NCBI GenBank assembly: GCA_050273025.1
Contig: CP158635.1
Location: 19,716,001-19,780,000, forward strand
Direction of reading: 5' to 3'
DNA from: Cenococcum geophilum
Lineage: Eukaryota
DNA: 64,000 nt
Part shown: positions 9,945 to 62,552 of the stretch, one piece after another
How positions within the stretch are numbered: the stretch's first letter is position 1
Layout: the number at the start of each line of letters is the position of its first letter
The notes under the pieces: generated by a model
What the model saw: the letters and a program-made list of their open reading frames with translations, nothing else
Databases searched by the model: none
What the model was told of the DNA's origin: nothing
Made by a program: the position numbers and the translations under genes

Positions 9945-10004
9945 TATCGGGAAAATATTCGCAGGATGAGATTCAAGTAGACTTTGTTTAGCGCGTTTCA
10001 CATA

Positions 10005-10290
10005 ATTAACATGTAATTGACCAACTTAATATATAACTTAACTAACTTGACACGCAATTAACTAACTTAATATGCAACTTAACTAACTTAACACGTAATT
10101 GACCAACTTAATATTTAACTTAACTAACTTAACACGCAATTAACCAACTTAATATTTAACTTAACTAACTTAATACGCAATTAACCAACTTAATATTTAA
10201 CTTAACTAACTTAATATATTTAAAAGTTAAATAACACGTAGTTAACCTACTTAACAACTTTAAAAGCCAACTGCATATTCCTTAACATGC
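10005..10290. repeat. Left subterminal repeat array (AACTAACTTAACACGCAATT-like units)
   Basis: Alternating ~20-21 bp units starting about 60 bp inside the left TIR. Confidence 0.8.
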
Positions 10291-10400
10291 AATTAAGGTA
10301 ATGTAATATATTATTTTAAAGTTATATGCTAATTGTATAAATAAATTTTTACTATTTTCTTAGCCTGTAGTATGCTAGCTTATAATATATATTATATATA

Positions 10401-10650
10401 ATCTCATATAATTTTATACAATTTTATATAATCTTATATAATCTTATATAATCTTATACAATCTTATATAATCTTATATAATTTTATACAATCTTATATA
10501 ATCTTATATAATTTTATACAATCTTATATAATCTTATATAATCTTATATAATCTTATATAATCTTATATAATCTTATATAATCTTATATAATCTTATATA
10601 ATCTTATATAATCTTATATAATCTTATATAGTCCTATATAGTCTTATATA
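10401..10650. repeat. 10-bp tandem array (ATCTTATATA)n downstream of the transposase
   Basis: More than 20 consecutive 10-mers, with variants ATCTTATACA and ATTTTATACA. Confidence 0.95.
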
Positions 10651-10689
10651 GGTTTATTATTATATTATATATTATAGGTTCTATGCTAG

Positions 10690-13600
10690 CTTAGCTGCTT
10701 TTACTATTTATCCTAGCTTCTATATAATAACGCGATGCGAGTTCCTTCTTTAAGAAAGTTGTCCGAGTACAGAGTATTATAGTAGTCCTAATTAATATAA
10801 TTATTGACGTAGTATAAATCTAGACAAGAAGTAGCGGCTAGAATAATATGCGCGCTTTGTAGAATAGATGGCATTAAATAAAAGCGACTACCTCTAAGTA
10901 CTTACCTAGTATTTACGCTCGGGCGCGGCCACCTTTTCACCTTAACTATGCCGTGTGTTGGATGCGGCAGTCCACGATTTAATGGCTGAAGCAGCTCTAC
11001 TATAGCTCTAGTATACTGCATGTATACACCATACTTATCTAACCTTTTAATATCTAGAATAGTAACAATTAGCTAAAGCTGGCCTATAAGTCTTCTACCT
11101 AATAGCGTGCGGCCCTTTCTAATACGGTTGCTGTTATCTATATACTCCTGGACCCATACATAATTACGCCTCTACTAGTTAAAATATTGCCAATTTGGTG
11201 TGCAACGTACTACCTCACTAATTTGGCCCTTAAGGTTAGTTATATTTTTTCCGTCTTGTTTCTAATAGCGAATAGATAGATATATTTTAATAAGTAGGCA
11301 CTTAACCTATAAGGGGTCCTTCTCTTTCCGGTCCATATTAGAGTTCTAGGTACATTCGCCTTGTAGTTTTCGCCTATACTCTCGGATAAATACCACAATG
11401 CCGTCTAGAAACCCTGGGATTTTGTAGTAGTTTGCTATATAAGATATATAAAGCCACGTCTTTAACCTAAGACGCCTCTAGATAAGATCTGTTGCCCTAT
11501 TTATATCTTCCAAAGGCTACCAAAGCTTTGCAACTGCTAAATGCTATATTGGTTAAGTAGCCTACACCTTTAGACGCTGGGAAGACTGTGGTATAGAATT
11601 ACTATTTATAAAAGCTATTTCGTCTTCTATTACTAGTACTGCTACCCGTCTTAAATTGTAAGAGTAGATTTAAGATAGCGAATCCTATTTATTTATTAAG
11701 TTATAAAACGCCTTAATAATGTAACGGTGTCCAGCTTCGCTATTTGCACTAGTGTAGTACCTATCTGCATATCCGTATAGGCGGATATTTTCCTTAAAAT
11801 ATATAAAGGTATGGAATTTTGATATATTAAAATGGCCTATATTAGAATCCTTTACCTTTAGACGGAAACTTTAAAACACGCCTTTAAGTATATTAATTTG
11901 ATATAGGGCGTGGTGTATATATTATAGTGTCTCCTTATTATGGGTGCGGTACTAAGCTATAATAATAAAGTTGTATACGGCTCTTATAAAATGCATAGTA
12001 TATAGTTCCCTAGATAACAGCAGTGGGGCTAGCATAGCGACAAGTTAACGAACTATGGCTTTTTATTTATTACCTGTCTATTAAGTAACTTTACTAAATG
12101 ACAGGTTATTAAACCATTTTAGCCCTATAAAAGCTAGGACTTATCTAAAACGCTAATTAAGCTAAGCCTCCGCAGATATATTTGTTATAGTTATCTTTAT
12201 CCCTCTTCTCTTTTTTTTTGGCTAGATAATATTGCCTACCAGTTTCTATACCTATTTAATAAGTTATATAACGATACCCTTTAGAAGCTAATATAGAACA
12301 TCTACTATTATGCCCTTATGGATATTAAATAGGCGATAGTGCCACGTAAAATATTCTACTAGGTATACCCAGTTATCTAAGAATAAAAGAATATTCTCTA
12401 GTTTCTGGCGTTTAATCTATCTTCTTGTCTCCTTATAGGTACGTAGCGGGTATTATTTCTTAGTTAAGTTCTTACGCTTTAGAGGGGGAACCTAGTATAT
12501 AGTACAATGCTGTTGGCTTTTAACACCTATAAGCAGCACTTATTCTTTATAGTCTACTATTATTCTATATATAATTAGATAACATCGTCACATAAAATTA
12601 TCCGTATATTAAAGGTCTACGCCGCTTTTTATAAGATGCTTAATTGCTATTATGTTTTAGTTAATAGAATATAGCGTTAGAATACTAAAATAGGACTTAC
12701 GTTTAAGTATAGTTCTCATTGCCTTATAATATACTTTACTTTTTATATTATTATCTTTTTCTTTAATAACTAGTATAAAGCCGATAAGGATATTTATAGG
12801 GGATATCTATTGGCGCTGAACTTGTTGGTTAAGATTACCGATAGTAAGATATACCGGCTAGGCCGATTTATTGCTATAGTGCATTATTAGCTAGGTCTTA
12901 TTAACTACTATAAGTATAGGAACTACTATAGTACCGCTAGGAAGCTTACCTTGTGTCTCTTACCACTAGTTACCGCTATATAGCTTATTATAGACTTAGT
13001 GGTTTTTAGTATTATAGAGTCTCTTTAGTGTATATACTAGTATATCTTTAAAGGGTTAATAGCTAATTAGAAAGGTAATTATATTTATAACATTCTAGTA
13101 AAGAATATGGTATTCCCTCTGCTTAGAGCCTTTAATATTTAATTTTACCTTACACTCTAATCGGAGCTATTGTTCGTCTTATATACTAAATAGAATAGCG
13201 GTAATTAGTTCTTTCCATTAATTTATAGATTGGAAGCTAAGTAGGCTATAAAGTGGGCTAAGGCGGGTGTCTTTAAGCAGTACGTTAACGTCTCTCTTTG
13301 TGCAGCAAATATAGTATAGCTATATTAAAAAGGTATAATTAAACTCCGAATAAAAAGGATTATATAGTATACTTTAGCTATTATTATATTATAATATAGT
13401 AATATCTAAAATTATCTAGCTAACTTACTATATATTATTATCGGTCTCATATAAAATTGGTTTACCCACCTTTATATTCTTAGTTACTTTAAATATCTTT
13501 ACTCTAAGTAATAATAATAACAATATAACGCTTTTCTAATATAGTATACCGCATAAAGGCACCAAATAGGCATTCTGCTTATATTCTACCGCCACCGGAG

Positions 13601-13853
13601 CGTACTTATTGGTATCCATATCTATACCGTCCGGTTATAATCGCGCGTTATCTAACTAGTAAGAGTGGTAGAATTAATCGCGAATTGTGAGTAGTCGGGC
13701 TATAATAAATGTGTGAGTGTTATATCTCTCTTTGCGTGCTTTTTTATAGACGTATTAGTGGCTAGGTAGTCGCCTTTTATAGCACCATAGGTGTCGGTAA
13801 AGGCCGCTATAACTCTTAGGGGTATAAGAACACTATAGACAGCTCCGCTGTAT
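10690..13853 (-). pseudogene. Plavaka transposase (CACTA/EnSpm-related), RIP-inactivated
   Basis: Minus strand: LPSGTIVVPILIVVNKT*L....KSA*PVYLTIGNL (=PI...DKTQL...AWPVYLTIGNL, ~12830-12945); DVLY*LLKGIV (=DxLHQLxKG, ~12270-12305); C-terminal YYVNNYIN*DYYNTLY; N-terminal CxxC...H C2H2-like finger. Confidence 0.88.
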
Positions 13854-13999
13854 TATCGCTAATTATATATTAAATAATGTGGTATTGTTTCTAGGCGTAA
13901 AGAGTGCGTATTATAGTACTAACCGTTAATTGCCGGTATTTAATCTGTGTAGGTGGCTTGGCTTTATAGCTACTAAGAGTATACCTTTTATTTTCTTGC

Positions 14000-14330: not shown

Positions 14331-14379
14331 CTTAATAGTACCTAAAAAACTTTTATCTATCTAAATAATAATATATAGT

Positions 14380-15300
14380 ATTCTTAGGTAATAGCTATAG
14401 GACTATAGTAACGGCGAAGATATTATTTACTACTGATGTTATAGAGCCCGATAATATTAGCTATCTAGACCTACGAATTCCGTTGTTTTTATATAAGCCA
14501 TAGAAAGAAAAAAAGGGAAGATTAAGGGTAGTGCTAGTTAAGTTGAGATAACTGAATAAGTTAGCACTTAGAACTATAATATCCAGTCTTAGGTATATAG
14601 AGTTCTAACTAATATCTAACTTAAGCTGCCGCCTGGAAGTCTTATATTCGTCGTTAGGGTAACGTTAAAGGGCTAGGCTAGATAACGGGTATTAGCAATA
14701 ATATAGATAATTTAAAGCCCGCGAAGTAACTAAATAGAAAGCCCGTGTCTTATAGGCTAACTACTTGTCTTTAACGGCTTTTAAAAGTTTATTTCTAGAA
14801 TTCCTTTTAACATCTCCGGTTTCCTATTAAATAGATATATTAGTATAAGCCTATATACTACTAGGGTGCGGAGAGCTAAAATACAGTTAGAGCTTTTTAA
14901 ATGATTTGCTAGAAAAGAACGGGTTATTTAGGTTAGCCTGTAGATCGGCCAGCTTAACCTTAACATCCTACTTTAGCTTGCGAAGATTAGGGCCATCTCT
15001 ACCCGGTATGCCACCGTCGATCTATGTATTAGCATCTCCCTTATTCGCAGCGGCTAAAGAGGCTTTAGGTGTCTGGTTTCTGGAAGGCATTATAATGCGG
15101 CTTTTAAGAGAGCCCGCTCCGCGCTAGGGCACTAAACGCTATATTATAGGTAGAGCTTATAGTAGTTGTATAAGGCGGGATATATTTCTAGGCAGTGTGC
15201 GTTTAGAGAAATTAAGGCTAAGGTAAGCTTAACGTAGCTATATTTTTAAAGACAAAGAGGCTGTGGTGTTGGTTTAGGCGGCTATAGAAGTTTAAAAGAT
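14380..15300 (-). pseudogene. RIP-degenerate hypothetical gene
   Basis: A coding-like, Ser/Pro/Arg-rich minus-strand frame is recoverable after de-RIPing. No family was recognised. Confidence 0.35.
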
Positions 15301-15601
15301 TAAGCGAATAATGGCAGGAAATGGAAGAAAAAGGCGCGTAAATGAGAGTACGGTGTTATAGGGCTAGAGTGACAATAGCTGTGTTATGGATGGCTTGATA
15401 TGCAATTCAGACTACGGGACCTATATGCAAATAAGTCTAGCGAATATCTTTAATATAAAGCGTAGTAGCTATAAGTGGGATCTAGGATACTAGTTTTAGG
15501 TTGCCTATGTAGTAGATATAATAGCTTATCTAAAAAAAAGTTGCTTTATTAGTGATATAGCTTAAAAATGGGTTATACTTTAGGTGAAAGGGTATCCTAA
15601 A

Positions 15602-15924
15602 GCCTTATCTTGCGCTTATGGGATAAAATACCATATTATATTTTACTTTATTTTGTATAATCTTAGACTTTTTATAATGTCTTAGATTATCCCCCTATCT
15701 CTCTCTACTATATACTTTACCTTATTTTATACTTATGGGATAAAATACTATATTATATTTTACTTTTTTTTATACAATCTTGGACCTTTTATAATGTCTT
15801 GGATTATCCCCCCGCCTCTCTTTACTATGCATTTTACCTTACCTTGCGCTTGTGGAATAAAATGCTATATTATATTTTACTTTTTCGTACAATCTTGGAC
15901 ATTTTTAATGTCTTAGATTGTCCT
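15602..15924. repeat. 117-bp tandem repeat, ~2.7 copies
   Basis: A TTATGGGATAAAATA-like anchor recurs at 15616, 15733 and 15850. Confidence 0.88.
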
Positions 15925-16516
15925 AAACTTGTTCTCTAACCTCTCTAGAGCTGCTTTACTAACTAGTTACAACACAAAGAATAGAATTATTAGCTCTCTT
16001 ATTATTATATATCTAGTTTAGTTGCTTAAGTATACCTATTAGGGCATCTATTATCCTGTCTATAACTCTTTGGCTTTCTATATAATGTATATAACAACTA
16101 ATATTCTAAGGCTTCTACTGCGGATTATACTTGTTTTTATATGCCTTGCTATTTACATCTTGCAATTTTATTTACTTAGTTAGCAGCGCAAATCTTGCAT
16201 CTTATCTCGCTATATACCTTTTGTTCCGTTTCTTACTCTAAGTCTTACATTTTGTTCTACTGCCCATATTAAAGCTTATATCTTATCCTACTTCTCGCAT
16301 TAAGACTCGCATTCTATTCTATTTCTCGCATCGCTCTTATATCGCTCTCGTTAGAATCCGCTATTGTTTTAAGTTAACACTATTAGCATACCTTCTTATT
16401 ATAACTGTTAGGATTGTCTTATTGGATTATTACTAATTATCTAATATATTATCCGCTCTACTATCTTTATAAGTCACTCTATACTATTCTATATAAAACT
16501 TTTACCCGCTTATAAA

Positions 16517-19500
16517 TATATAGGGTCCTTAACTATAATAGCGGCGCTATACCCAGACTCTAGTTGGTACTTAACCACTGCGACTAATAAGAACTTATTG
16601 TAAATAAGTGGTCTAAAGCTGTAGTAAGGACTCGCGATTAACGAAAAAACATATAAAGAAATCCTCTAATACTATGCTAGCGAAATTAACGAAGCGTTTA
16701 GCGGTAGGTTGCTAGCGTCTGGGCCCGTATAAAATGGAGTTAAGCGTATAGTCTTTAACCTTTTTAACACTAAGTATAGGCACGTGTTTAAGAGATCCGA
16801 TCTACCATTAGAGTTTAAAGCTTTTGCTATTACCGCTAAAAAATCTATATGGCGATATGTAACGACTAATAAACGTGGAGGCGTGGAGGTTATAATAGCT
16901 GATATTATTTTAAAGCATAGCGGCTTGTCTTCCAGAGAGCAGTTTGTTGATTTATCTAGATTAAGGGTAGCCTCTAAGGCTGCCTAGGTGTTTGGTGGAC
17001 TGTCTATTAAAGTCCTATAATAGCTAAATACTATACTTATACTATTCTATAAAATGAGCTTTGCTATATATAGTTACCTAAATAAAACGCCATTAAATAG
17101 GGCCCCTATTCTATACGGATTTGCATTAAAAATTAAGTATAAGCATCTATTATCTGATTCTCTAGAGAAAGTTAATGTATATTATTATAGATATAATAAG
17201 CTGTAGGCCGCGATAAGTATAAACTTCTTAGCGGATAAATATAGGGATAGCTGGGCTATAGTAGATCTAACTACTAGTATATTAATTCTCAACTATATAA
17301 ACCTAGTATTTACGGTGCTTTTTATAAAGAAGGCTGGACTTAATATAATTATAATTGGAGTTAAAAATCCTAATTAGATTATAAAGTGTAAGAGACTTTA
17401 TAACTTATATAAGATTGTATAATATTATATAGAGTTATCTAACGTATATTTATAGGTATAAGATTTAATAAGAGTACTTCTAAGTCTGACTTTAACCCTA
17501 ATATTATACAACCGGTGCTAACTAGGAGAAGAATAGGTATACCTGCCCTAGGTTAAAGTAGTTATAAGCAGTTAATTCTAGAGTCTACGCTACCTATATC
17601 TAAGCAGTTAAATCTAAAGCCTATATTAACCCTAAAGTCTACGCCACCTATACCTACTGGTGTATTATTAGCCGTATAGCCGGCTATAATTAAAACTGCT
17701 TGTAGTTGGACCTATAGTAGTAAAGACTAGCCCCTGCTAGATAAATTGGAGCTCTTAAAAGGCGTGGATCTGGATAAAGTATAAACATTTAAGATAATGC
17801 TATAAGATGAGATGAAAGGATAGTATAATAAATAGCTAAAGTCTAATTGCGAAATATTTATTGATATATTATTTAAGGATATAAATAATAACCCTAACCT
17901 AATTTGTATTGGGGAAATTAATCTTAACCGCACATGGGAGCGCCGCTACTTTAATGCCTTAATTAACCCTATTTTGACTAATAAGGAACTAGAAGATAAG
18001 CACGAGGATGGAATTAAGGAGGTTAATTAGGAAGTTAATTACTTAAAGGACGTGCGAGAAGTATATATTAACCTAATATTATAGGTAAAGGCGCTACAGT
18101 TCCTCTTATTTCCGTTAACTATTTATAATACTCTTTAAGATGTAACCTTCTACTTATACGGCATAAAAAAGGGTAAAGCTATATAGATATATTAGCTGCT
18201 TAGTGTTACTTATACTCTTTGTAATTATATAGCCCTAAGTAGGACCTTTCTCGCGGATATAATGGGTTTAGGTAAGATACTTTAAATGCTTTTAATCTGG
18301 TATACTAGCGTGTTAATAACTAAGATTAACCTTAACTGGCTTAATTGGAAAAATTAAGAAGGTAGAGATAAAAGTCTCTATCTTGCCCCTGGTATAAATA
18401 AATACCTATAGCCGCCTAATACTTAATACCTAAGTTAAATAGATAGTATACTACAGTGCTGTTATGTTAAGAGAAGTATTACCAGAAATTTTCTTTACCG
18501 GCTAGTAGGACTAACTATATATATTACTAGACAGAATCTACTACCCTAAGCAGTTAAAGACGTTAAATTATAGTTTAAAACCTTAGAACTAAATAATTAT
18601 ATTCCCAGAGGTAAACTACAAGTTCGCGTACGCTATTCGGCTTTTATTAGGTCTAGTATAAAGAAGTATAATTTTATAGATAAAGATAAAGATATTCTTA
18701 AACCTATAAAATGCGAAAGAGAAGGTGAGAAGGTCTGGTGGATAATAGACCTAAGATTGGCTTTGTATCTTATAATTATAATATTATAAACTTAGGCAAT
18801 AACCTGGACCGCTTAGGAATAGTATAAGACTATTTTTAATCTCTATAGAGACGGTGGTCCTTATTATATTATTAGTGGGATTCTTACTGACGAGTTCTAT
18901 ATAGATAGGTTAGAGATAGGTTATCTAATAAAAATGGCTAAATAAGTATATAATAATTAAGTAGTATTTCCTCGCTTTTAACGCCTGGGCCTATCTTATA
19001 AGGATGGTAATAGTAAAATAGCCTACTACACCTCTTGACCTTTAGTAGTGTTTACTTTCGGTATACTAACTAGCGAAGGTTTTATAAGTCTAATTCCCGC
19101 TTTAGAAATTTTTAGGGCCCCTAATTAGGCGGATTCCATAAATATAAAATTAATTAATAATTGTAATATTAAAGCATTAATTAAATATAAAAAGCTAGGA
19201 GCAGCTAATTGCTCTTTTTTTCCAAATAAGGTTATTACGGGCTTTAAAAAATGCTTCTCTTTAATTATAAAGATCTTAATTATACGTAGGATAGGGGAAG
19301 ACCGATGGTTTAATAGGAGGGTAATTAATAAGCTACCACTGGTTGTTTACTAAGACTGCTATATAATAAATGATTTAATATTTAAACCGTATATTAATAA
19401 GCTCTAGCGTGGAGCATCTTTAGATGCTTTTAAACAGCTAAATAAAGCTTTTAAACACTGGAAAGCTAAAGGAAGAAAAGGAGAAGAACCCGTCTTTAAT

Positions 19501-19835
19501 ATAGATTAATTTCTAGAGGGAGCCGGTCGCTTATTAAAAATTTTTGCTATCTTTTTAGGCCTGGCTAAGGTAGGAGATAAGTGGTAGGATATATAGTGGA
19601 AGGATAAGGCAAAAGTTAGAATAAAGCCAAGGTGGACAGTTAATGAGTTTTGCAGCAAAAAATAGGATAAACCTTTAGATAAGAATCCGCTTTAGAGGAA
19701 TTAAAGTATAATTACTAACTCTAGGAAACTAAAGCTAATTATAAAATACGTTAATAAAGTACTTAAAAGGAATCCTAATAAGAGATTACTGTTTAGTAGT
19801 TACGAACCAGCAGCATATACGCTATTACGCCTTAT
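16517..19835 (+). pseudogene. SNF2-family helicase-like gene, RIP-inactivated and 3'-truncated (start uncertain)
   Basis: FLADIMGLGKIL*ML (=LADxMGLGKT, motif I, ~18245-18290); ILTDEFY (DExH-like motif II, ~18880-18900); VLLSGxP motif III (~19050); SxKL..I...V...L.....K.LLFS start of the HELICc region (~19720-19800). The frame then enters an intron-like sequence and stops. Confidence 0.75.
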
Positions 19836-20449
19836 AAGTTAGCCATTAAACTAGTAGTAAACTATTACTACTAGAATCTTGTTATTAGGGAAGACGCAGC
19901 CGGATTTGGAGGTTCCTACCCCCCGTTTTAGGAGGCTGTTTCTCCTCGCTTAGACCCATATCTATCGCCGCTTTTACAACATGCTAAGCGTGCCAAGGGC
20001 GGCAGGGTCTCCCTCACCTACCAAACCTAGAAGCGCGCGTGCAGCCCTGTAATACACCTCTCGAAGCTCCCTAAACGTCCCTTAATGGCTATTTAAGAAG
20101 CTATGGACGTCCGCCGCCTACCTAATCCAGTTTCTACCTTCGTCCTTATCCTCCGCCAAAAGCACTACCCTCACCCGACGAAACCTCCCTTCTGCACTAC
20201 GCTCCTTTAACCCTTTTCCCACAGTAGCTACGTATGCATTTTCCCCTATTATTATATCATTCGCTTCTAATACTTAATTTCTAGGTTTCTACTTACGGGG
20301 TTTTTTAGCCCTGTCCCGCTCTTAAGAACACCTATCTCCCGTAGAGCCTTTTTCAGCGTTCCCATTAACAGCAGTTACTCTTAAGCTAGCTTCTGCGTGT
20401 AGGCAACTAGTAGCTACTAAAGCACTAAGACACCACGCGTTTAACCACC

Positions 20450-23192: not shown

Positions 23193-23429
23193 GTAAGTCG
23201 CCTTGCTTATATAAGAATCCTATACTAACCCTCTAGTACTAATAGAAAGGTATATAACTAGTAAATTTAGAACTATGCGTTCCTTATACATAGGACCTTT
23301 TCCTAGTTATTTCTCGCTTATCTTATTATTCTTTACTACTTTTTATTTTATTTTAGTCTATTATCATCCAATCCTATTCTAGTATTTAGTAGAATAGATA
23401 TAATAACTAGGATTTTATAATTTGTCTAG

Positions 23430-23555
23430 GGGGCAAGGGGTAATAGGTGAGGGTAAAGGTAAGGGTGAGGTAAAGGATGAGATAAAGGGTGGGGTGAGGG
23501 GTAAGGGGTAAGGGGTAAGGGGTAAGGGGTAAGGGGTAAGGGGTAAGGTAAGGGG
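23430..23555. repeat. (GGGGTAA)n-like simple repeat
   Basis: About 6-7 consecutive 7-mers plus degenerate copies between the convergent DUF3435 and BTB genes. Confidence 0.8.
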
Positions 23556-23579
23556 AGGCTGATGGGAGATAGATAATAC

Positions 23580-30620: not shown

Positions 30621-30815
30621 TAATATTAGGGAGATAAGGTTAAAGCTACTTATTAAAAGCATTATAGATAAGATCTAAAGCTACTATAATGCTAAAGTCT
30701 ATAATAGTGGGTTGTAAGTTATATAATTTATATTAAGATAAAAGAGTAGTCAAGTGCAGTTCCCCTCCGCTCTTAATTCCCTAGTAGGTCGCTAGCGCCC
30801 CTAAAACTTAGAAGA

Positions 30816-30886
30816 GCCTTACACCAATTACATCGCTTTAATTAAGTATCGCGTACTTAATTAAAGCGATATAATTGGCGCAAGGC
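30816..30886. repeat. Inverted repeat, 33-bp arms with a 5-nt loop
   Basis: GCCTTACACCAATTACATCGCTTTAATTAAGTA-tcgcg-TACTTAATTAAAGCGATATAATTGGCGCAAGGC. The mismatches are transitions only. Confidence 0.9.
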
Positions 30887-41990: not shown

Positions 41991-42130
41991 AATTTGCCCA
42001 CGCCACTGCCTACCGTATAGGTCTTATTACCACAAAAGTAAGAAAGTAATTTTAAGAAAGCAATAAGTAATAATGCCACCAGCTACAAGATCTATAAGAC
42101 GTATTTAATACTCTGTATATATAAGCGAAT

Positions 42131-48000: not shown

Positions 48001-48019
48001 AACCTAAAGCTAGAAATAA

Positions 48020-50204: not shown

Positions 50205-52138
50205 AGACTAGGGTTAATTGCCGTTTATAGGGTATAAAGGTTTATAAGGGCTTAAATTCCTAGCACCTAATTAATACCCTTAGCAAATTACGATTAAACC
50301 GTATCCGCCCATCTAAGCTAGCATATTTAGCTCTAACATAGCTATTACATCTAGCCCCTTATTAGGAGGTTAGTAGCTTAAGTTTTCTACCTTTATTCCT
50401 TAGTAAAGGGCAGTACTAATATATCTATTTACTTCCCGATAATACTAATCCGGCTAATCTTCTACGCCGCTTATATTAATAGGGTATAAAGCCCCGCTTA
50501 TATATGCGTATTGCGAGCTATTTATAACGGAAGGAGGTAGTATTATTATTAGTAGCGGGCGGGGTTCTCTAATACTAACCGCCTAGTAACAGATATGCCT
50601 ACTACTCACACGGTGATCGTATATAGATATATAAATATGCTAGGTAAAGGACTATATAGGGTACTGCATAAGGTGCTGCATAATGCTCGCCCTCCTAATA
50701 TAGCTGGCTAGTATTAGAGATTCCTTCGCAGTTATACCGCAGTGCCGCAGATCTATTATATGCCTAAAAGCTATAACCTTTTAATTTTAATCCGGGTGGT
50801 TCCTACTATAGCCCTATAGCTTAGAAGGCCGGATTATTAATCTTTTACCGCTCTACTACTAAGCAGTTAGGCAGAGCTAATAGCCCCTTAGCCCTAAACT
50901 AGCAGATTAAACAGTATCTTTAAAACATCCGTGGTAATGCAACTATACTATTAGGCAGGCATACATGGCCACCTAAGCGACACTCCATATAATGTTTGTT
51001 TAAATAATGCCTAACATAGCCCTATATAGGGTGGTCGCTTAAATCGGCAACGTCTAGTTGCTTTTCTACTGGGTAGCCTAGTAGGCATACTAGCTATAAT
51101 ATAGGTGGCTTTAGCTATTAGTAAACGCTAAAGCGGGTTGTCTAACTAACAGTATATCCTAGGTAAGAAAATAGCATATAGGTTAGCTAAAACGAGTGCG
51201 ACATAAGCTCGCTTAAGCCCTTAAGGGGGCGGATACGGCACGCCTATCTCTTCCTACCTTAGAAGGAGATATGCGGCAGAGTTAAATAAGATAATAGTGC
51301 TAACGCGGCTAGTAACTGCGGAATTCCCCTAACCCCCTTCTTATGGGATAGTTGCGGACTAGCGCCATCTAGAAGGCGAAAGGAGAGAGGGTGTATATAA
51401 GAGAGAGAATAGAATTATAAGGATATAGACGCGCTTAGCGGACAGAGGCGGGGCTAAAAGAGCTTAATAAAAATTAAAGCCATTAACTCCAGAGGCAGGA
51501 ATTAGGAGAGGAGGCTAAGACCATCTATATATTACCGTAGAATAGAAACTCACCCATTAGAAAGGCCGCAGTTAATTATATTAATTATTAGTTTAAGATA
51601 TAGGGGAATAAAGCAATAAGCGGGCTAGACTTATATACGCATTAGCGCTAAAGGGACGGCAGAAATGCCTTAATATAACTATGCCAGGGACTAGCAGTAA
51701 GAAGAGGAGGAGGCGCAGCATTAGGAGAAAGGAAAGATAGAGAATAAGAGGAAAAGTAGTAAGAGAAATGGCCTTTTATGGTTAAGGTTAAGGGGCAGTC
51801 TTGGCTTAGCTAGGGTTAATAAGCGAGGGCGCCTTGCCTGTAAAGGAAGCCTCTATTTCCTAATACAGTTTCCTACATAACAAAATAACTAAAAGGATAA
51901 TAATTAATAAGTTCCACGAGGTGTTTAAAACCCAACCTACTTAGTAGGCTAATAATAATGTAATGGAAATAGCATAGCTAGTGTAGTTAGAGTAGCGATC
52001 CCCTATAATAAGAGTGTGTTTTAGTATAATGTATATATATGTAGACAATATACAACTGTTTAATATTTTGTGATATATTATCTTAGTGTTAACCACCGTA
52101 TAGAAGTATAGGCCACCTTATATATAGTACCAATATTA

Positions 52139-52892
52139 CCCCACTAAAATACTTATAACTTAAGAACTACTATAGTTATTTATATAAAATTTTAAATATG
52201 GCTTATTAAATAGTAATTTAAGCTTTTTATAAAATAAAAATTTAAAATTTTAAAGCTATTTTATATATAGTTTTAAAATACTTATAGCTTAATAACTATA
52301 ATAGCTATTTATATAAAAATTTAAATATGGCTTACTAATTAATATATTAAACTTTTAATATAATTAAAATAAAATACTATAAAATATTTTATAAAGAGTT
52401 TAACTTATTAATTAGTAAGCTATATTGGTTTTTATATAAATAGCTATTATAATTATTAAGCTATATGTTAGCGACTTAGTTAATTAAGGTATAAGCACAG
52501 AAAGAGGGACACGTAAGCCTATATAATTGGTAGTTTATAAACAAGAATCTAAAGCTAGAGAAAGGAAAGGAGAGGGTGGCGCCACTTAACGTTATATATA
52601 ATCCTCTAGTTATATAATAGCAAATGTCTAAAACTGTCTAAAACTATATAAAACTGTCTACGATTGTCTGCTATAATTTACTAATATCTACTAGTTTCTA
52701 CTAGCGCCGTAACACTATAAGTATTTTAAAACTATATTTTAATATAAAATATAAAATAAAACTATATATAAAATAACTTTAAAATAAAGAATTTTTATTT
52801 TATAAAAAGCCTAAATTACTATTTAATAAGCTATATTAAATTTTTTATATAAATAACTATAGTAGTTCTTAAGTATAAGTATTTTGGTGGGG
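52139..52892. mobile_element. Foldback MITE with long TIRs and TA target duplication
   Basis: TA|CCCCACTAAAATACTTATAACTTAAGAACTACTATAG... is mirrored by ...CTATAGTAGTTCTTAAGTATAAGTATTTTGGTGGGG|TA. The arms pair over more than 100 bp and contain internal sub-repeats. Confidence 0.88.
52466..52714. mobile_element. Solo LTR (family B), 249 bp, 5-bp TSD CTATA, inside the MITE
   Basis: Ends are TGTTAGCG...CGTAACA, with CTATA at 52461-52465 and 52715-52719. Removing it restores the MITE arm symmetry. Confidence 0.88.
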
Positions 52893-53809
52893 TAATATAA
52901 GGTGGGACCGTGCACGAGGTGGCCTATTCTAGAAAGTTTAAATTTAGTCTAGATTAATATTACTCTAGCTACTAACTACTTTAATACCTATTAAGTAATC
53001 TAGCCCACTAACTCTCGTTCCTATATATATAAACAGTTCCTATTAAGGTATATCCTCTCTACTAATAGATTATGTATATTTACTATCTTTGTTATTCTAA
53101 AAGCCTAATTAATATGTAAGAGGATCCTCCCGTTAGTGGTGGTTTTTGAGATCTTACTATCCCGTATAAAAACTTTTTACTACTAACAACTACCAGCTTC
53201 TACCTGCATGCTGTGTAATGTCTATATAAAATCCCTAATGTTAAAGAAAAGCGTACCCTAATTATTCTATTTAATCTGCCTTTTAACTTTTTCTATAGGT
53301 GCAAGATATTAAATTAACCTATAATATAATGCTAACTGGAATAATTAGTAAACCTAGCTCCGTTAGACAAATATGCTTAATAATAAGGACTGAAACCCCG
53401 TTGCTACTAAGCCTATTATACTGCAAAATAAAAGGGCTATTATTGATATTGGTACGTTTTAAACGCACTTTATTAGCTAGCACTAATAGATATAGGTTAA
53501 TGGGCTACTTACTACTTCGTGTTTAACGGTTCTAAGAATAATAGGGCAAAACATGCTGTTATTTGTCGTGCTCTTACCGACTATAACAATTAATTTATTA
53601 TAGGCTAGAAACTTAGCCTTAGATAAGCAAAAGGCAGACTTTTAGGATATATTAGATATATTACGGACGAAACCTTTATATAGCCTACCCGTATTAGAAC
53701 ACCTTAATAGCAGTACTATACTGTTGGATTTTGCTGTTAGGCATTAGAGTAACTAAGTAACCTTAAGTCTTCCCCTTGTTGCCCAACCCTAAGCCTTATT
53801 ATATCGCTA

Positions 53810-54133
53810 AGACTCTTATATTATTAAGTTTTATTATATTACCGAGTATTATTATATTACCGCCGAGCCTTATTACGTTGCCAAGCCTTATTACATTATT
53901 AAGTCTTATTACGTTACCAAGTCTTATTACATCGCCGTTAAGCCTTATTATTTTACCGAGCCTTATTGCATTGTTAAGTCTTATTACGCTGCCGAGTCTC
54001 ATTACATCGCCGTTAAGCCTTATTATGTTACCGAGCCTTATTACATCGTCAAGTCTTATTACGTTACCGAGTCTTATTGCATCGCCGTTGAGCCTTATCA
54101 CGTTATTGAGCCCTATTATATCGCCGCCGAGCC
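53810..54133. repeat. 18/21-bp minisatellite (GAGCCTTATTACGTTGCC-like)
   Basis: About 17 units. This array produces the spurious repetitive ORFs in the track. Confidence 0.9.
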
Positions 54134-54135
54134 TC

Positions 54136-54208
54136 CTAGCTAGATTGGGTAATTAGACGTCGCGAATTTAACTCCTAGGCGTGGTGGGTTCGATTCCCAC
54201 TTGTCGCG
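54136..54208 (+). other. tRNA-like fragment (T-arm / Pol III B-box)
   Basis: GTGGG-TTCGATT-CCCAC forms a perfect T-stem/loop at 54184-54200, and a weak A-box-like TAGCTAGATTGG lies upstream. No complete cloverleaf was found. Confidence 0.35.
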
Positions 54209-55299
54209 TATTAAAAATATTAAAAAAGAAGGTCATTTCCTATTAAATTAGGCGTTAGTAAGGCTCTAAATTAAGCTTATATTTTTATACGTGTCTTATA
54301 ACGCCTAAAGTCATATATTTAACGAAATCTCAGCACTATATATTAAGCATATTGGCTCTTCTACGCCGATTTTTAATTATATTAGGCTAGCTCTAAATTA
54401 AAGTAAGAGGTAGAACGTACTATACCACTACGCTATAAGGACTTTAGAATGTAATCTTATGAATTTAACTAAATTATAACCCCTTCCTAAACCTTACGAT
54501 TAAACCAGATCCTTAGGGAGAGATCCCTACATCAAATCTTAGGGAACGTTTAGTGGCGACTTTAGATTAAATTTAAAGGCCCCAGAATATATCCGATCTA
54601 AAGCTTAAATCTGATTCTAATGTAATTGTTTAGTTAATCTGGCGACTTTCTAATCTAAAAGCTTTTCTAGATTAGTAAGCTATACCGTATATAGAATCTA
54701 AACTAAGGTCTTGGCGTTAGTTTAAATTAGGAGCTTAAAGCTTATCTGGAGCCTTATAGAAGGATTAACTTAATTTCAGATTTTATATTTTAGTAAGTAG
54801 TTAATCTGCTGTAGTCCAAAATCTTAGTTATTAGAAATTTGGGGTGTCTCTGCCACTATAGTAGCAGAGGCACCTTAAGTTTAATACTACGCTAAGTATT
54901 ACGACTTTCCTACAGTGACTAAGCAATCCTAAATTAAAGTAATTGTGGAACTTACTATACCACTGCCCGTAAAGGCCCTTAGTTATAGTCTTATAAATTT
55001 AATTAAAATATAAACGCCTTCCTAAATCTTACAATTAAATATTTCTATATGTAGCACTATGCTAAGGATTATGATATAGATTGCTTAGATATAGCTTTAC
55101 TATAATATAACGGCTCTATGCTAATTAATTGATCTATAGCTCTAAAATCTAGATCTATAACACTAAAAATAAGCTTTAAGCTACTAATTTTATATTAGCA
55201 GAATGAAACTTGGCAAGAGATTTGGGTAATAAAATTACTGTTAAGAGTTACTGCCCGGATCCTGGCCGATAAATACCTATAACTATAATCTTAGTAAAT

Positions 55300-55625
55300 A
55301 GCAAAAGTATATAGTAGTACCGAGACAATAGTAGGATAATATAAGATAATGATAGGACAATATAATATAATGGCAGGATAATAATAGGACAATATAGTAT
55401 AATAGTAGGATAATGGCAAGACAATATAACACAATGGTAGGACAATAATAGGATAATATGATATAATAGTAGGACAATAACAGGATAATATGACATAATA
55501 GCAGGACAATGATAGGACAATATAACATAATGGTGGGATAATGGTAGGATAATATGGGATAATATAATATAATAGTAGGACAATGGCAGGATAATATAAG
55601 ACAATATAAAAACATAAAATATAAG
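55300..55625. repeat. Compound 10/11-bp minisatellite (GGACAATRRYA / GGATAATATRRYATAATRGYA)
   Basis: Regular alternation of 11- and 21-bp blocks. Confidence 0.88.
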
Positions 55626-55649
55626 ATATAAAAAGAGGGAGCCCTAACG

Positions 55650-56900
55650 CTTCCTCTTCTTTCTACCCCTATGGCCTTGGCGCCTAATGTAGTGTAATAT
55701 CGTCTATCCGTATAAGCGATAGTATTAAGACGGTTACTTTAAGTAATATACCTAGATAACTGGTCTAGCGTATAGTTTGTATAATATGTGATAATAATAG
55801 GGGGATCTCCTATTGTTATATTGCTAAGTAATGCCTTTAAAGCCACGTTTTTCTAGTGCCTGGAGGTCCTTAAATTATTATAAAACGCTTTATAAGAACT
55901 CGTTTTAGCGCAGTAGCTTTAAGCCCCATAGTAGTTATATTTGGCCAGTCTTTAAGAATATAAACATTCTTAAATAAGGAAGTATCCTTAATAGCTATAA
56001 TTAAGCTAAGATCCGTATAAGGCTTATTTATAACGTATTATAGTGCTTTAATATTCTATTAAACTTAAATAAGGTGTTCTAATAACGGGAATCTATTAAT
56101 AGTTAGATATCTTCTTATTTAGAAAATATTGCACACTTACGGCTCTCTTATTAGCTTTTATAATGCCAATATAGTATAGCGACTAACTTTGTAAAATCTA
56201 GTTTGTTTCTTAACCATCGTCTATAATACGGATAAGTTAATCTTAATCTCTTTAGGTCTTAAAGAATAAGTTAACCTCTAGAGGATTTTATTCTAATACG
56301 GCTAATAGTCTCGCCGCCGCTATTGCAAGTATATATTTCGTTTAAAAAATGTTAGTCTTGGGAGTTAAAGCAATTAAAGACCTGGTGACTAGTCTTTTCG
56401 ACTAATCCTAACGGATTATTTTCCCTACTCTCCTAAGTAAGAACGCCACGCGGATTACTAGCCCTTAAGGTAAAAATATTACTAAGCTAATATAGGCCTT
56501 GTAGATGTTAGGGGATAACTACTTTAGAATTGTAGCATGCTTACCTGTTTATATATACTAATTCTATTACTATATCTAGATTCTAGTAAACTAAAAGGGT
56601 CTACTCTAATTTAACCTACTGCCTCTCTTAACGGTTTAATCGTGTCTTCTCTTAAAAGATTGTACTAAGAGCTTAGATACTTTTTTGTTAAGCTAGATAG
56701 ACCTAAGATCTTATTAACTTATAGTGGAATATCTCTGTTTTTACTAATAATATTCTGGCCCTTATTAGGGATATTAAGTATTTTAGTGGAGGTTAGAACC
56801 TCTAATTATACTAACTAGGCTCTACCAGTTAAGGGCTGACTAGGCGTCTTAAAGTATTAATAAATATAGTTACTAGTATATGTTAAGCTGCCTAGAAGGG
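55650..56900 (-). pseudogene. Hrr1/ZNFX1-like SF1 (Upf1-like) helicase, N-terminal part only, RIP-inactivated
   Basis: Minus strand: KYLSS*YNLLREDTIKPLREAV (~56620-56685); RVAF...VGKIIR*D*SKRLVTRSLIALTP..N.F*TK.ILAIAAAR (~56310-56450); LKRVL.KR..II*GPPGT.K Walker A (~55850-55910); PIIIT.YTNYTLDQL (=TNHALDQ). Confidence 0.8.
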
Positions 56901-59566
56901 ATTTATATATATAGAACTATAGCGCTATAGCCTAGAGGCTACATACGCAGTATTATACGTAGTATAATATAATGGAGATAAAAAAATTTTTATATATATA
57001 TATATAAAAAGTATTAACAAATCTAGGTGCTAAATTGAGCTTATTAAGACGGAGGAGACGTAAAATAGATAGGAGAAGGCTTATAAGTCTAGGTGGTGTA
57101 GCGGGTAGAGAAGCGTTCGCTAATACGCTTATTTATTTCTTGTAAGATATTTAACCGATTGTTTTATATATAACTAAATAATATAGTTACCTGTCTACAT
57201 AATCCTATATATTGGTCTTGGCGCGTAATTAAGACGTCTTTCCTACCGTACCTCCCCTAACGCTTCTAAAATTATAGCACTAATAATAGACCTAAGCTAT
57301 AACACTAAAGACACTCTTAAGCGAGATCTTAGGGTTATAAATAAATAATATAATACGATCTACTATGATGTTAAAATTAAAATGTCGATGCGCGGGCTCC
57401 TTGGATAGCCACTACGCTCCCTTATAAGTAAGGTATAAATACGGCAAATATTAAACGAAATCTCTAATAAATTTCTATCTGTGTTTCTAGGTTTACCTAA
57501 GAATCTATATACTAAATATGTTAAATAACTTGCCTAGCGCTATAGCTATAACGCGACGCGTTAAATAAATAAAACGGCTTTTACTAGGCAAATTATAATA
57601 GGCAACCTAGTACTCCCATACTCCGCTATTGCGCATTATCCACCGGCTGGTATACTAAAGGTAATAAGGTAGGAGGGAATACTAAGGTTATATAGGATAA
57701 TAATAATACTAATCCGGCGGGCAGCTAATAAAGAGCTAATAATTATCCTAACCTGAAAGCTAGCGACTAGTAAGAATAACGCCCTAGATATACACGTTGA
57801 TAATCTAAGCTTTGATATATTTATAGACATGCTAGGCTAGGGTATTAACTTTAACCCTAAGAACGAAACGCTTTACTACTATATTAGCGATAAGATAGCT
57901 AGAGGACGAATTTAGCTTATAAATAAAGAGAAATAGCGTAGTATGGTTAAGGATATGTTTCTATAAGAAATGGATAGGTTTTTATTTATAATAGAATAAA
58001 GAAGAACGAGTAGGTTACTATTTAAAGTTAATTTAGCGTTACTAACTTGTATTTATAGTCTGCGCTACCAGCTAAGAATAATGCAATTACTTACCCTCTA
58101 TTTCCGCACCCTTGCCTTTACTAGATAACTCGCACTCTATACGTATAAAAATAGGTAGAATAGGTAAATAGGTTAATACTAAGGCGATACTTAACCCATA
58201 GCTATCCTAAAAAACCTCTCCTAGTTAAAAAAGAGCCCTTACTCTACGCCTTAACCCGTAATAGAAAAGGCAAAGGTAACTATAACCGTAGCATGGATTA
58301 TGCGCCTTGAAGCCACTGCTTTATTCGGAATACTTACTGGTTTAATAGATTACTATATATAAAGGTAGACGGCTTAATATTAGAGCCCTTTGGCGTGCTA
58401 TTAGGCGAGGGAGTCTTAGAATAATATATCCTGGGATATTCTTATAACTTATCCGGCATTCTTAAAACGCTTAAGGGGATTAGATGATAAAGCCTAAGGT
58501 TTATACCTATTCTTTCTAGTAAACTTGTTAGGGTAATATATATTAACACCGTCCCCGGCTTACTCTTAGTATCTAATACCTAATCCTTATATCTATGCTT
58601 GCGCTTTCCTTACTATTCTACTAAATTTAATTGCTATTGCGATATATATATAGGGGATAGGTTGGGCTTATTATAGGCTGGCGGGGTTAACGACACGGAA
58701 GAATAACATTAGATGTTTGCGGTAGAAATACTAGGTATTGCATAAGGGTATAAAATATGGCGATATAACTATGTAGAAGTGTTATTGCTGTCCTATATAC
58801 CGCCTGTGCCTACCCTAGCATTATTTACACTAGTAAGCTATACGGATGAGGTAGATAAGCTTCGCTTTAAGCGTGAGACGGGTGTTAAACCTAGTGTAGG
58901 TGGACTGGAATAAGGTACAGGATCTAAAAGCCGGTGCCCTAGGTGGGTAAAGTGGTTTAATAAGGTACCTCCCTATTGAATTTAGACACGAGCCTTACTA
59001 GCCTGCTGCTTTTGTTACCGGGATTAACGTTTAACCTTTTATATACCTATACTGTATTTACTAAGGGATATGCTAATAGAATAAAATAGTTTCGCGTATA
59101 ATAGCAAATAGTATTAGATAATCTTTAACTATATAATAATGTTTTCTTAACTACTAACTTAATGCGAGTTAATAGGTTGCGGTTGTGGCTTAACCGCAAC
59201 CAGTTAGAACTAGCAGCTAATTATAATAAATATACCCCTATTTAAGTTATTTGCAAGCACTATAGCAATAATACTCCTACTAATACTGCTATTAGTCTAA
59301 TATATACTATACCAGTATACATTCTTTTAAGTTGTTAATCTATATACGCCCTAGACATTATAGAAATAGCTATAAGGTAACCTATTCTAGCTATAAGCTG
59401 TACTTTTTACTAACTAGGTAAATATAGGAGTGTTACTATAGCAGGTAAATGTAAAAACGCGTTATTAAACACTTAAACTAGTAGTAAGAACCCTACTTTG
59501 AGTTAACGTATAATAAGGAAACGAGGATAACTAGTATAATTAACCTTATGTCTCTACCTAGTCTAC

Positions 59567-59773
59567 TGTTGGGAGTTGCCCACGTCCTAGCTGACGGAAG
59601 GAAGAACGCGCTGATGGAGAATAAGTATGTGGAGCCCAGCTAGAATGAGCACGTGGAACCTAGCTAGAATGAGTAATATTGTAACTCTAGTCTAGTTATA
59701 TTTAGGCGCGGAGAGGAGTAGGCATGTAATAGACCCCGTTAACGTTGTATATAATATATTAAGCTAGCTAACA
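59567..59773. mobile_element. Probable solo LTR (family C) without a matching TSD
   Basis: Ends are TGTTGG...CTAACA (RIP form of CCAACA). It has an internal direct repeat (AGCTAGAATGAG x2) and a TATA-like tract, and is less RIPed than its flanks. The flanks TCTAC / ATGTA do not match. Confidence 0.45.
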
Positions 59774-59789
59774 ATGTATAGAATATATA

Positions 59790-61620
59790 TAGCCGCCTCC
59801 GGCCAAAAAGGGTAATCTCTAATAATGAGGATAGTGACTATAAGTCTACACCTGCTTCTTTTACGAAACGATAGCGACTAAATATTAATAAATCTACTAA
59901 ATCTGTTAATAATCTGGTAGTAGAACTAGCTTAGTTAAAGACGTAAAGTTCTAATCTTTTGGTTAAGGTAGGTTATACCTTTATATATAACCAGAGTCTA
60001 ACTATAATACTTAATAGTCTTCTCTACTATTTGGTACTTAACGGGCCCTAGTAAATAGAATACTCTCTTTGCTATCTAACCGCTAACCGCTATAAAAAGC
60101 AGCATCTTCGCAATATACCTCCGGCTCTTAATAATTGCGTATTGGTTTAAAATACTCTCCTACGCGTCTAATCTGTACCTTACCGCGTAAATAATTGCGT
60201 GCTAGTTTAAAATACTTTTCTACGCGCCTAATCCGTACCTTATCGCGTAAACAACTAATATTTGGCTTTATATTCTCTTTAGTAAGCCGTGTCCGCCTAA
60301 ACCCTAATATAGCTTCGTCTATGAGATAAGTAACCTCCCTTTAATACAGAGTATACCAACCTAGTATTTAATCTAAAGGGGACCTGAATAGCGCCAGGGA
60401 AAGTAAGGATAAGTTAGACTACGAAGACGATTTTGACCTAACTGCCGCGCTATGGGCAAGAGAAGAGTACCTTTGGATATTATAACGGCGACGTATAAAA
60501 GAAAACCTACCTAAGAGATATGAGCCTATATTTGCGCTTTGTAGGTCTATTTTACTAGTAAGGCTAGTAACTGACTCTGGGACTTATAACGGGCATCTTA
60601 TTAACCTATAGTTTGACCGCTTTCTAGGCCTTATTAAGGATATAATGAAAAAGGTATAGTTAGAAGCCATTTTAAAGCAGCTAAAAGCAGTATAAAAAAA
60701 AGCTAATTGTATTCCTGACCCGGTGTCCGCTCGTAAGGTATCTATATACTAGAAATATTATATTAAATTATTTACTAATAATCTTAATATTATATATAGC
60801 TATTTAACGCAATAGGGAACTTTAGGAACTACGTGATTATAAAGGCTCGTATGATTGTAAGGGAGGTATATAGGCTAGGGTTTAACAACGCGCCTAAACT
60901 TATTGTGGAACTACTAACTAATTATAATTTTATTGCGCTGGATTATATAAAGGTATTTTGCCTATGCTATTTAGTAAAATACTAATAAGAGTTAATAGCT
61001 AAGTGATAACCGCTTCCGTTCCAACGTAATAGTTGCTGGTATAGCTAGTATATTTTATAGTAGAGGAAAGAACGGCCTTACCTAATTACCCTGCTTTTGT
61101 AATATGTTTAAAAAGCTTACTGGCAACACTATTACTTTTATTTTAATAGCAATATATTATGTAATTAGGGAGTATAGAACTGGGTCTAAGGGAATAGACA
61201 ACTTTTATAGCACTGTTATTAGTAGTTAGTATATATTTAGTGTTTTACTACCTATTATTATTCTCTAACTCGTTATAGAAGCCTATGCTAACCTCTTAGG
61301 CGGCTAAAACTAGATGTTTAGAAAATGGTAATCTAGAATCTGGCTGCGGCTTTAGCCCGTAGTTATTAAATATGCTATAGGCCTAATGCCGGATTAATTA
61401 ACTATAGAAATTATTAAGGACCTGTATAAAGATAACCTTAACGACCTTATAGCGGATTTAAGCAATAATGTAAGAGAGAGGTTCCTTATAAGCCTTAGCG
61501 ATAACGAAACTAACGCGATTATTAACTTAGGCTATTTATTAGTAAGCTGGGCTATATTATCTAATCCACTAAGCCTATCTTAAAGGGAGAGCTCTAGAGT
61601 AGGCTAGACTAGTTCGCTAA
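59790..61620 (+). pseudogene. RIP-degenerate multi-intron gene near the right TIR; C-terminal segment resembles DUF6532-type proteins
   Basis: Several GT...CTAAC...AG introns. A de-RIPed segment FILxAMxHVIGEYxTGSKGxDNFxxTVISxAYANLL is followed by an acidic tail. The resemblance is by eye only. Confidence 0.4.
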
Positions 61621-62380
61621 GTCCGTCTTAAAGGGAGAGCTCTAGAGTAAGCTAGAAAATCTAGGGCCTTACTACTACTATAATATTTGCTAATTTAACT
61701 TTTGGAACTAGCTAAGTTTGTTAGATTTAGTAGAATATATATCCTCTGCTTTAGTGTATTACTTTATCCTAAATATAGGAACTGGTAAGCCTAGGCTAAA
61801 AAGGTTTAAATCTAATAAGTTATTTATATAATTTAAGCAGTACTATAGCCTTATAGAGGACAGCTATGGCTAGTATAGTAACGGGAAAGCAATATTAAAT
61901 TTAATTAAGAATAAGGAGTAGTATATAAAGTTTGTAATATATGCTCTGGACTCTAGTATAGAGGAGCCGGTAGAGTTTTTGGTAGGAGATTAGGTGTAGA
62001 ACTTTCTATATTCTCCTATAGGATAACTGCGGCTTCTTTATTATATATACTAGCTCTTAATCTACCTTTCTTTCGGCCTATATCTGCTACTTTTAGTAGC
62101 TACTTTTTGGCTATATATATGTGCTATACTAGTAAAGCTAAATACTTATATTATATTATTGTCGCAGAGAGAGCAGGAAAGGTCTTATAATTTTAGAATA
62201 TATTATAAAACAGTTGGAATATTATATTATATTATTTAAAATAATATATTGGATTATATAAGGAAGTGTATATAATTTGCCTTGCTAGCCTTATAAATAG
62301 CTTTAAAGTAGCCTTTTTTTATTATCTAAAATATACTATTGGTACAAAAGAGGTAGATGGCTCTAAATATAATTGTGGTT

Positions 62381-62435
62381 GCAGGTTGCGTGTAGGTTGC
62401 GTGCAGGTTGCGCGCAGGTTGCGCGCAGGCTGCGT
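62381..62435. repeat. Right subterminal array, 5 x 11 bp (GCAGGTTGCGY)
   Basis: Five consecutive units about 100 bp inside the right TIR. The reverse complement shares the CACGCAA core with the left array. Confidence 0.88.
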
Positions 62436-62552
62436 GTTAAAAAAACACGACATAGGCTAGTCGGTCGGGTTGCCAAATGCCCTCAACTGCGCGCCAATTG
62501 CGTCAACCACCAACCATTGAGGCCATTGGAAGGGTACCATATTTTGCCGATG

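Follow-up and report, generated by a model that had tools for sequence, protein, structure and literature searches.

A RIP-inactivated PlavakaB-type transposon of about 20.6 kb in a fungal FunK1 kinase gene, probably split later by a 32-kb Starship-like block

The window analyzed here is a stretch of 64,000 nucleotides from Cenococcum geophilum (assembly GCA_050273025.1, contig CP158635.1, positions 19,716,001 to 19,780,000 of the forward strand; coordinates below count from its first letter). In it, a FunK1 kinase gene is interrupted by the segment 9945-62552, which is probably one copy of a PlavakaB-type cut-and-paste transposon of the DDE class, about 20.6 kb long, that was later split by a 32-kb block and killed by repeat-induced point mutation (RIP). 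By the comparisons presented below, the 52.6 kb of the segment are a composite of the Plavaka element and a block private to this copy. A first-pass annotation had described a single 52.6-kb cargo-laden unit, a description that is not supported, and had left open the length at which it moved; this question is now settled in that the family has a length of about 20 kb, with the private nested block accounting for the additional 32 kb.

Gene calls in this region rest on translations read through with stops written as X, because none of the stop-to-stop frames (at least 80 codons) inside 9945-62552 exceeds 151 codons. The features that define the insertion site are:

7500..9944, minus strand: 3' part of the target gene, a FunK1 kinase pseudogene killed by RIP (PF17667, E 4.4e-74; 60 stops in 815 codons)
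62553..63485, minus strand: 5' part of the target gene and its upstream region, collinear with 38774-37736 of a paralogue (blastn, matches in purine/pyrimidine space, alignment)
9943..9944 (left copy) and 62553..62554 (right copy): 2-bp target-site duplication TT (TC in the paralogue), from the global alignment

The X-read minus-strand translation of 7500-9944 matches the Pkinase_fungal family, and the pseudogene is cut exactly at 9944/62553. An uninterrupted FunK1 paralogue, which lies inverted within the segment itself with its junction point at ~38.77 kb, provides the empty-site reference: blastn aligns 8299-9943 to 40439-38777 (83%) and 62606-63287 to 38724-38037 (75%). In a global alignment of the joined flanks to this paralogue, the target carries exactly two extra bases (GAC-TT/TT-TATTATAG versus GAC-TC-TATTATAG), and the protein frames continue over the junction (..ATII/K/SIPPS.. 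in the target versus ..TTII-E-STPPP.. in the paralogue). The split gene and the 2-bp duplication proposed in the first pass are thereby borne out. It is extremely unlikely that the two ends stem from separate Plavaka insertions or that chance brought together kinase pieces of different paralogues. As such a joining would allow, divergence from the paralogue is higher in the right kinase piece than in the left one (7.4% versus 2.0% transversions, with 1-2% across the left part); however, the two pieces match a single paralogue collinearly, the breakpoints meet at the exact base and leave exactly two duplicated bases, the frames run on through the junction, and the halves of the element flanking the nested block are contiguous in 18 sister copies described below.

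The enzyme that would have mobilized the element is represented by a degraded gene:

10707..13910, minus strand: Plavaka transposase relic (PF18759, match to the protein P0001, consensus open reading frame pieces)

The Pfam Plavaka profile check suggested earlier returned a match at ~12270-13139 on the minus strand (PF18759, E 7.2e-35), which spans positions 35-317 of the 325 in the profile. Within 11265-13247, 42 of 661 codons of the relic are stops, and its X-read translation is 67% identical to P0001, which its source names a Plavaka transposase. A de-RIPed consensus of 9945-19873, ~29 copies deep and with a GC content of 0.46, restores the minus-strand transposase pieces. The gene had been placed within 1 kb of the left end; this holds for the 3' end of the gene relic (10707), but the Pfam domain lies 2.3-3.2 kb away. 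According to PMC12730594, Plavaka is part of the CMCT clade, which is related to EnSpm and has CA..TG termini and duplications of 2-5 bp, and its PlavakaB families are defined by 2- or 3-bp duplications together with CATCA..TGATG termini. The 2-bp duplication at 9944/62553 lies within that range, and the window termini, CATCG..CGATG, agree with those of PlavakaB at four of five bases. The 9.9-kb consensus Plavaka-11_AB begins CATCAGCAAAACGG (PMC12730594, supplement Table S1), which is identical to the first 14 bases of the distal end of the window element, CATCGGCAAAATAT, at 11 of 14 positions. By these sequence characters, 9945-62552 is assigned to a PlavakaB-type element whose terminus departs from the published one by a single base.

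A scan of public metagenome contigs in which P0001 served as the query yielded 160 matching stretches, of which 126 encode relatives; 77 loci were kept, and these cover at most 10 kb upstream of the transposase. The transposase-side end, ..ATATTTTCCCGAT(G/A) (also written ..CCTGCGAATATTTTCCCGAT(G/A)), is present in 32 of the 77, and the similarity between copies stops exactly there, with a different flank in each locus (33 pattern matches, one of them spurious). In all but one of the 32 loci, this end follows the transposase match at a distance of ~350-730 bp downstream; the exception is L014, where a long terminal repeat (LTR) element is nested and the distance is 8.9 kb. The 32 sister loci are thus independent insertions of one mobile family. 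A distal end, TATTGGCAAAATAT.., was found once, in a second element of locus L011: the similarity starts right at the terminus, with an unrelated flank next to it, and covers the window from 62552 back to ~62210. Within the metagenome loci and their at most 10 kb of upstream sequence, the search for further copies of the two ends, a search of the kind proposed in the first pass, succeeded for 32 transposase-side ends and one distal end but gave no paired ends. Locus L011 itself holds two family elements 8.3 kb apart (a transposase-side end at 12448 and the distal end of another element at 20747), and its second copy departs from the window beyond ~340 bp into a CTACCTGCCTATCT-like simple repeat.

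The ends of the window element and the arrays beside them are:

9945..9958, plus strand: transposase-side terminal inverted repeat TATCGGGAAAATAT (RIPed from CATCGGG..), at the breakpoint; the same terminus ends the homology in 32 loci
62539..62552, minus strand: distal terminal inverted repeat CATCGGCAAAATAT (reverse complement); the homology to the second copy in L011 starts exactly there
9997..10255, plus strand: transposase-side subterminal array of ~12 units of 20-21 bp after de-RIPing, GACACGCAATTGACCAACTC
62376..62434, plus strand: distal subterminal array of 11-bp units, reading inward CGCAACCTGCG

The terminal inverted repeats, CATCGG(G/C)AAAATAT, are identical at 12 of 14 positions as they stand in the window and at 13 of 14 when the de-RIPed consensus of the sister copies, CATCGGGAAAATAT, is used for the transposase-side end; the initial T of the window element is a RIPed C, since the termini of the sister copies show it. 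The motif by itself is no rarer than chance (3 matches at up to 2 mismatches versus 3.18 expected), and its weight comes from its position exactly at both breakpoints. One further end-like match, at 60953-60966, is a chance occurrence in an unrelated context. The imperfect 14-bp repeats, the short-repeat arrays at both ends and the identification as a Plavaka-type transposon with resolvable ends all stand as originally proposed, the last supported by the PF18759 match and by ends that belong to one multi-copy family. The left subterminal units at first looked like RIPed inverted copies of the right 11-bp units; this proved wrong, as the de-RIPed units differ and only a core ACGCA(A/G)TTG is common to the two sides.

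The window core is 88-91% identical to the sister copies over 9.3 kb, and this range of identity applies to 9945-19873 as well as to the sequence from 51884 on. Between 10568-19873 and the loci L004 and L008 the differences amount to 10% transitions and 0.3% transversions, and between L004 and L008 to 8.6% and 0.0%. As the differences are nearly all transitions, with transversions at 0.0-0.3%, the copies must have been nearly the same in sequence until RIP acted on them; this indicates that a recent burst of copies preceded RIP. No open frame of at least 180 codons was found inside the element in the 34 close loci. On these data, at least 32 insertions of near-identical copies took place before RIP killed them all.

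The same loci resolve the composite structure (516 blastn matches between the window and the 77 loci). The stretch 9945-19873 is covered without a break by 19-36 loci. The stretch 20000-51500 is uncovered apart from a ~215-bp LTR repeat at 22321-22543 (five loci) and one 75-bp match near 24.8 kb, and coverage resumes at exactly 51884 in 19 loci, continuing as far as these extend. Of 21 loci that reach 19-20 kb, three run out of sequence (L018 at its first base, L001 and L025 at 6.6 and 7.5 kb upstream); in the other 18, without exception, the two core parts lie 366-370 bp apart where the window has 32,010 bp, and these 366-370 bp are missing from the window. Hence, 19874-51883 is private to this copy and replaced ~370 bp of the core. 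The family element accordingly measures 9,929 + 10,669 = 20,598 bp (9945-19873 plus 51884-62552), a figure of ~20.6 kb that is the window's own and is unconfirmed in a second copy because no locus covers 58767-62210. The earlier alternative of a ~20-kb element with a nested Starship-like block is thus the one upheld. The parts concerned are:

19874..51883, no strand assigned: private Starship-like block of 32,010 bp, replacing 366-370 bp of the sister copies
51884..62552, no strand assigned: distal half of the family element; 51884-58766 is common to sister copies and the last ~340 bp to the second copy in L011
21458..22303, plus strand: captain-like relic of a DUF3435 tyrosine recombinase (PF11917, E 2e-27 and 1.4e-28)
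37727..44016, plus strand: 6.3-kb repeat with the uninterrupted FunK1 paralogue and a DUF7025 relic
39211..40453, plus strand: FunK1 Pfam match in the paralogue (E 1e-70)
43531..43818, minus strand: DUF7025 relic (E 1e-14)

In the simplest history, which we consider quite probable, the ~20.6-kb element inserted into the kinase gene first and the block arrived later. The sister copies show the family transposing in the layout that lacks the block, which favors movement at ~20.6 kb. The family would have spread as near-identical copies through a transposase that recognized CATCGG(G/C)AAAATAT ends and presumably bound the subterminal repeats as well, with integration by a 2-bp staggered cut; the landing site of this copy would have been the 5' part of the FunK1 kinase gene. 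The 32-kb middle would then be a later arrival, most likely Starship-like and moved by its own DUF3435 tyrosine recombinase, which replaced ~370 bp of the Plavaka core, and RIP would afterwards have destroyed the whole region from 4.9 kb on.

It is quite unlikely that the whole 52.6-kb composite moved as one unit, the block having first entered a Plavaka copy elsewhere before the FunK1 gene was hit. It is true that the two ends and the 2-bp duplication enclose all 52.6 kb, that the window contains no evidence on whether the block is older or younger than the Plavaka insertion, and that cut-and-paste movement would leave no donor copy. However, the block occurs in none of the 18 spanning sister copies, the copies of the family were near-identical before RIP at the ~20-kb layout, and this history requires one more event and a 2.5-fold larger substrate. 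If it were true, a DDE transposase would have relocated an entire Starship-like element together with its recombinase and cargo, whereas in the published case it is small transposons that hitchhike on Starships.

The origin of the block itself leaves more room. Its DUF3435 relic, in which 18 of 282 codons are stops, is located 1.6 kb in from the left block edge (19874) and oriented inward, which is the layout of a Starship captain. That the block came by ectopic recombination, repair or translocation, swapping ~370 bp of core for foreign repeat DNA, is unlikely, but less so than the movement of the composite. There is room for such an origin because ~370 bp of core were lost at the site and because block and flank share homology, in that the 6.3-kb FunK1/DUF7025 repeat of the block has the Plavaka target as its other copy. 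The terminal repeats of the block are weak as well, and excision sites of the Hephaestus family of Starships show no leftover DNA (PMC10104507). On the other side, the inward DUF3435 relic at one end and the length of 32 kb fit the Starship layout. The left block junction also carries a TTAC-N7-A string, and TTAC(N7)A is the target string of Hephaestus-family Starships (PMC10104507); this string carries little information and is too short to count as evidence. The block is therefore most likely Starship-like and is named as such rather than as a Starship. As for the outer segment 9945-62552, its ends are Plavaka terminal inverted repeats with a 2-bp duplication and not the product of a tyrosine recombinase, so that the segment as a whole is not a Starship.

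Several observations weigh against the preferred history of a Plavaka insertion followed by a Starship-like arrival. The inverted match between the block ends is weak (TTGTTAT.TAGG.AA), the 77 metagenome loci contain no further copy of the block, and the loss of ~370 bp of core means that the block is not a clean insertion. The order of events rests on parsimony. The sister copies come from environmental metagenome assemblies and not from the window's own genome; among these loci, with their limited upstream reach, no second copy was seen with both ends, nor were paired ends seen that carry a different duplication, and 58767-62210 is not confirmed as family sequence.

The target and the repeats around it deserve a separate description. 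The Plavaka target is itself repetitive: together with the paralogue it makes up a repeat, 6.3 kb or longer, that comprises FunK1 and the DUF7025 relic, with 4935-9944 and 62553-63485 corresponding to 44016-37727; terminal repeats of this repeat were looked for and none were seen. A self-comparison of the window in purine/pyrimidine space gave no repeats beyond those from blastn. The ~215-bp dispersed repeat occurs as single copies at 8078-8298, in the target kinase gene, and at 22321-22536, just past the DUF3435 relic. In L014 the stretch from the transposase to the Plavaka end contains two direct copies (12124-12338 and 19772-19990) at a distance of 7.6 kb from each other; because of this pairing, the repeat is probably a retrotransposon LTR and the window copies solo LTRs.

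The whole segment was also searched for genes by a six-frame Pfam scan of 9945-62552, with families reported at E <= 0.01. It detected six families, namely Plavaka, DUF3435, FunK1, DUF7025, the ZNFX1 domain and DUF6532, and neither a reverse transcriptase nor an integrase was found in it. A sliding stop-density scan was too noisy for locating genes. Beyond the transposase, the core contains:

14831..19839, plus strand: family-specific orphan open reading frame relics, consensus pieces of 133-293 codons reading away from the transposase
55650..56494, minus strand: helicase fragment relic with a ZNFX1 domain at 56246-56494 (PF25396, E 4.1e-8) and a Walker A motif, running into a tandem array
60960..61233, plus strand: borderline DUF6532 match (PF20149, E 3.7e-5; 24.1 bits versus a cut-off of 24)

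The least-RIPed copies of the plus-strand frames have no Pfam match below E 0.1, and protein searches with these frames in large collections returned same-family fragments only (one hit, then 12 hits). Of the 12, eleven have lengths of 41-130 residues, and the remaining one is a stretch of 44 residues within a protein of 6,874 residues. In 51884-54900, no open reading frame of at least 90 codons occurs outside the tandem-array stretch of 53.75-54.35 kb, even after de-RIPing. The Walker A motif GPPGTRKT lies at ~55869, 380 nt past the ZNFX1 domain and in another frame, with the tandem array next to it, and the relic resembles no more than the first part of a helicase gene. In Ganoderma genomes, DUF6532 has been listed together with the domains Plavaka, KDZ and FunK1 (PMC8955403). 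The many passenger genes once proposed thus reduce to a transposase, orphan frame relics, a fragment of the ZNFX1/P-loop type and a DUF6532 match of borderline score, and the core is large without being laden with host cargo.

Tandem arrays occur in the Plavaka core at 10386-10671, 14003-14319, 15603-15923, 52105-52930, 53790-54123 and 55323-55606, one of them with inverted arms (52105-52275 versus 52930-52757). A short dispersed repeat is present in inverted orientation at 63925-63999, in the right flank where it runs off the window, and at 56866-56986 in the distal core, and also in L006 (18079-18205) and L020 (2269-2340). A 77-bp piece, 56116-56192, has the opposite orientation in nine sister copies (L004, L006, L007, L008, L011, L017, L021, L027 and L029), in each of which it spans base 1 to ~78, near the position that matches window ~55.3 kb; L020 is collinear with the window around it. 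This points to an inverted or otherwise rearranged region near the tandem array at 55.3-55.6 kb in a subset of the copies, and no inverted repeat accounting for the inverted 77-bp match was found. The collinearity of L020 with the window ends at 58766 because a nested LTR element starts there in that locus: bases 1-496 of L020 are a copy of an LTR-like repeat that forms a pair in L012 (15233-15602 and 21556-21684, 6.3 kb apart), and they interrupt the Plavaka copy at the point matching 58766. Finally, L028 contains, in a heavily RIPed contig with a GC content of 0.25, a 3.2-kb stretch (635-3830) that starts CATCAAAAAAAT and ends, in reverse complement, TATTGGGAAAAT. This stretch may represent a relative that is short but complete; its flanking dinucleotides, CA and TA, fit a RIPed 2-bp duplication.

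The RIP-affected compartment begins between ~2 and 4.9 kb. The GC content is 0.30-0.39 from ~4 kb to the window end, and the GC-rich part is confined to the first 2 kb, where a 436-codon open frame at 3-1313, with ankyrin-like repeats seen by eye in its translation, is GC-rich and free of RIP. Across 4.9-64 kb, TpA/ApT is 1.5-1.8 versus 0.96 in bases 1-2000, and (CpA+TpG)/(ApC+GpT) is 0.38-0.57 versus 1.13. By the usual thresholds for RIP indices, the window is strongly positive from 4.9 kb onward, and everything from there to the window end is evidently wrecked by RIP.

These results document a large Plavaka family in a RIP-active and probably ascomycete fungus. With both end types, the 2-bp duplication and the asymmetric subterminal arrays defined, the element is a well-resolved example in a little-characterized transposon group, and it presents a Starship-like element and a Plavaka element nested in each other's repeat families. 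No new class of giant cargo carrier is revealed.

Plant CACTA/En-Spm elements have short CA-starting terminal inverted repeats, subterminal repeat arrays, large size and captured gene fragments, as does the window element. Their termini are CACTA with a 3-bp duplication; strictly defined CACTA/En-Spm elements (CAC..GTG, 3-bp duplication) therefore differ from the window element, with its CATCG termini and 2-bp duplication. A close likeness exists to PlavakaB of Agaricomycotina (PMC12730594), in the PF18759 transposase, the 2-bp duplication and the CATC(G/A).. termini. The two differ in the fifth terminal base (A in PlavakaB, G here), in length (9.9 kb for Plavaka-11_AB versus ~20.6 kb) and in host, since RIP and the DUF3435 element of the window point to Pezizomycotina; no TET/JBP gene was detected in the window element. 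The Plavaka of the Chinese white truffle, a Pezizomycete, shares the ascomycete host, 2-bp duplications and terminal inverted repeats but has the motif CATAC instead of CATCG (PMC12581995). Starships, of the Hephaestus family and others, resemble the nested block only, in the inward DUF3435 gene at one end, the length of tens of kilobases, the other genes aboard and the absence from homologous sites (PMC10104507). They differ from it in that ~370 bp are deleted at the block site and that direct repeats and other copies are not shown here, and from the outer 52.6-kb element in its DDE-type ends and 2-bp duplication, which set it apart from Starships. The novelty of the proposed giant gene-carrying DDE transposon is weakened: earlier publications describe both giant Plavaka elements, 17-19 kb long and equipped with accessory genes, and Plavaka of ascomycetes that make 2-bp duplications. 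The genome of the red alga Bostrychia is dominated by giant Plavaka of 17.4-19.1 kb with three accessory genes (bioRxiv 10.1101/2025.02.11.637652). These accessory genes, PAG1-3 (methylase/SET, ParB-like/2OG oxygenase), were not found in the window element, and the host kingdom differs; the likeness between the two lies in large families, several non-transposase genes, tandem arrays and many degenerate copies (bioRxiv 10.1101/2025.02.11.637652).

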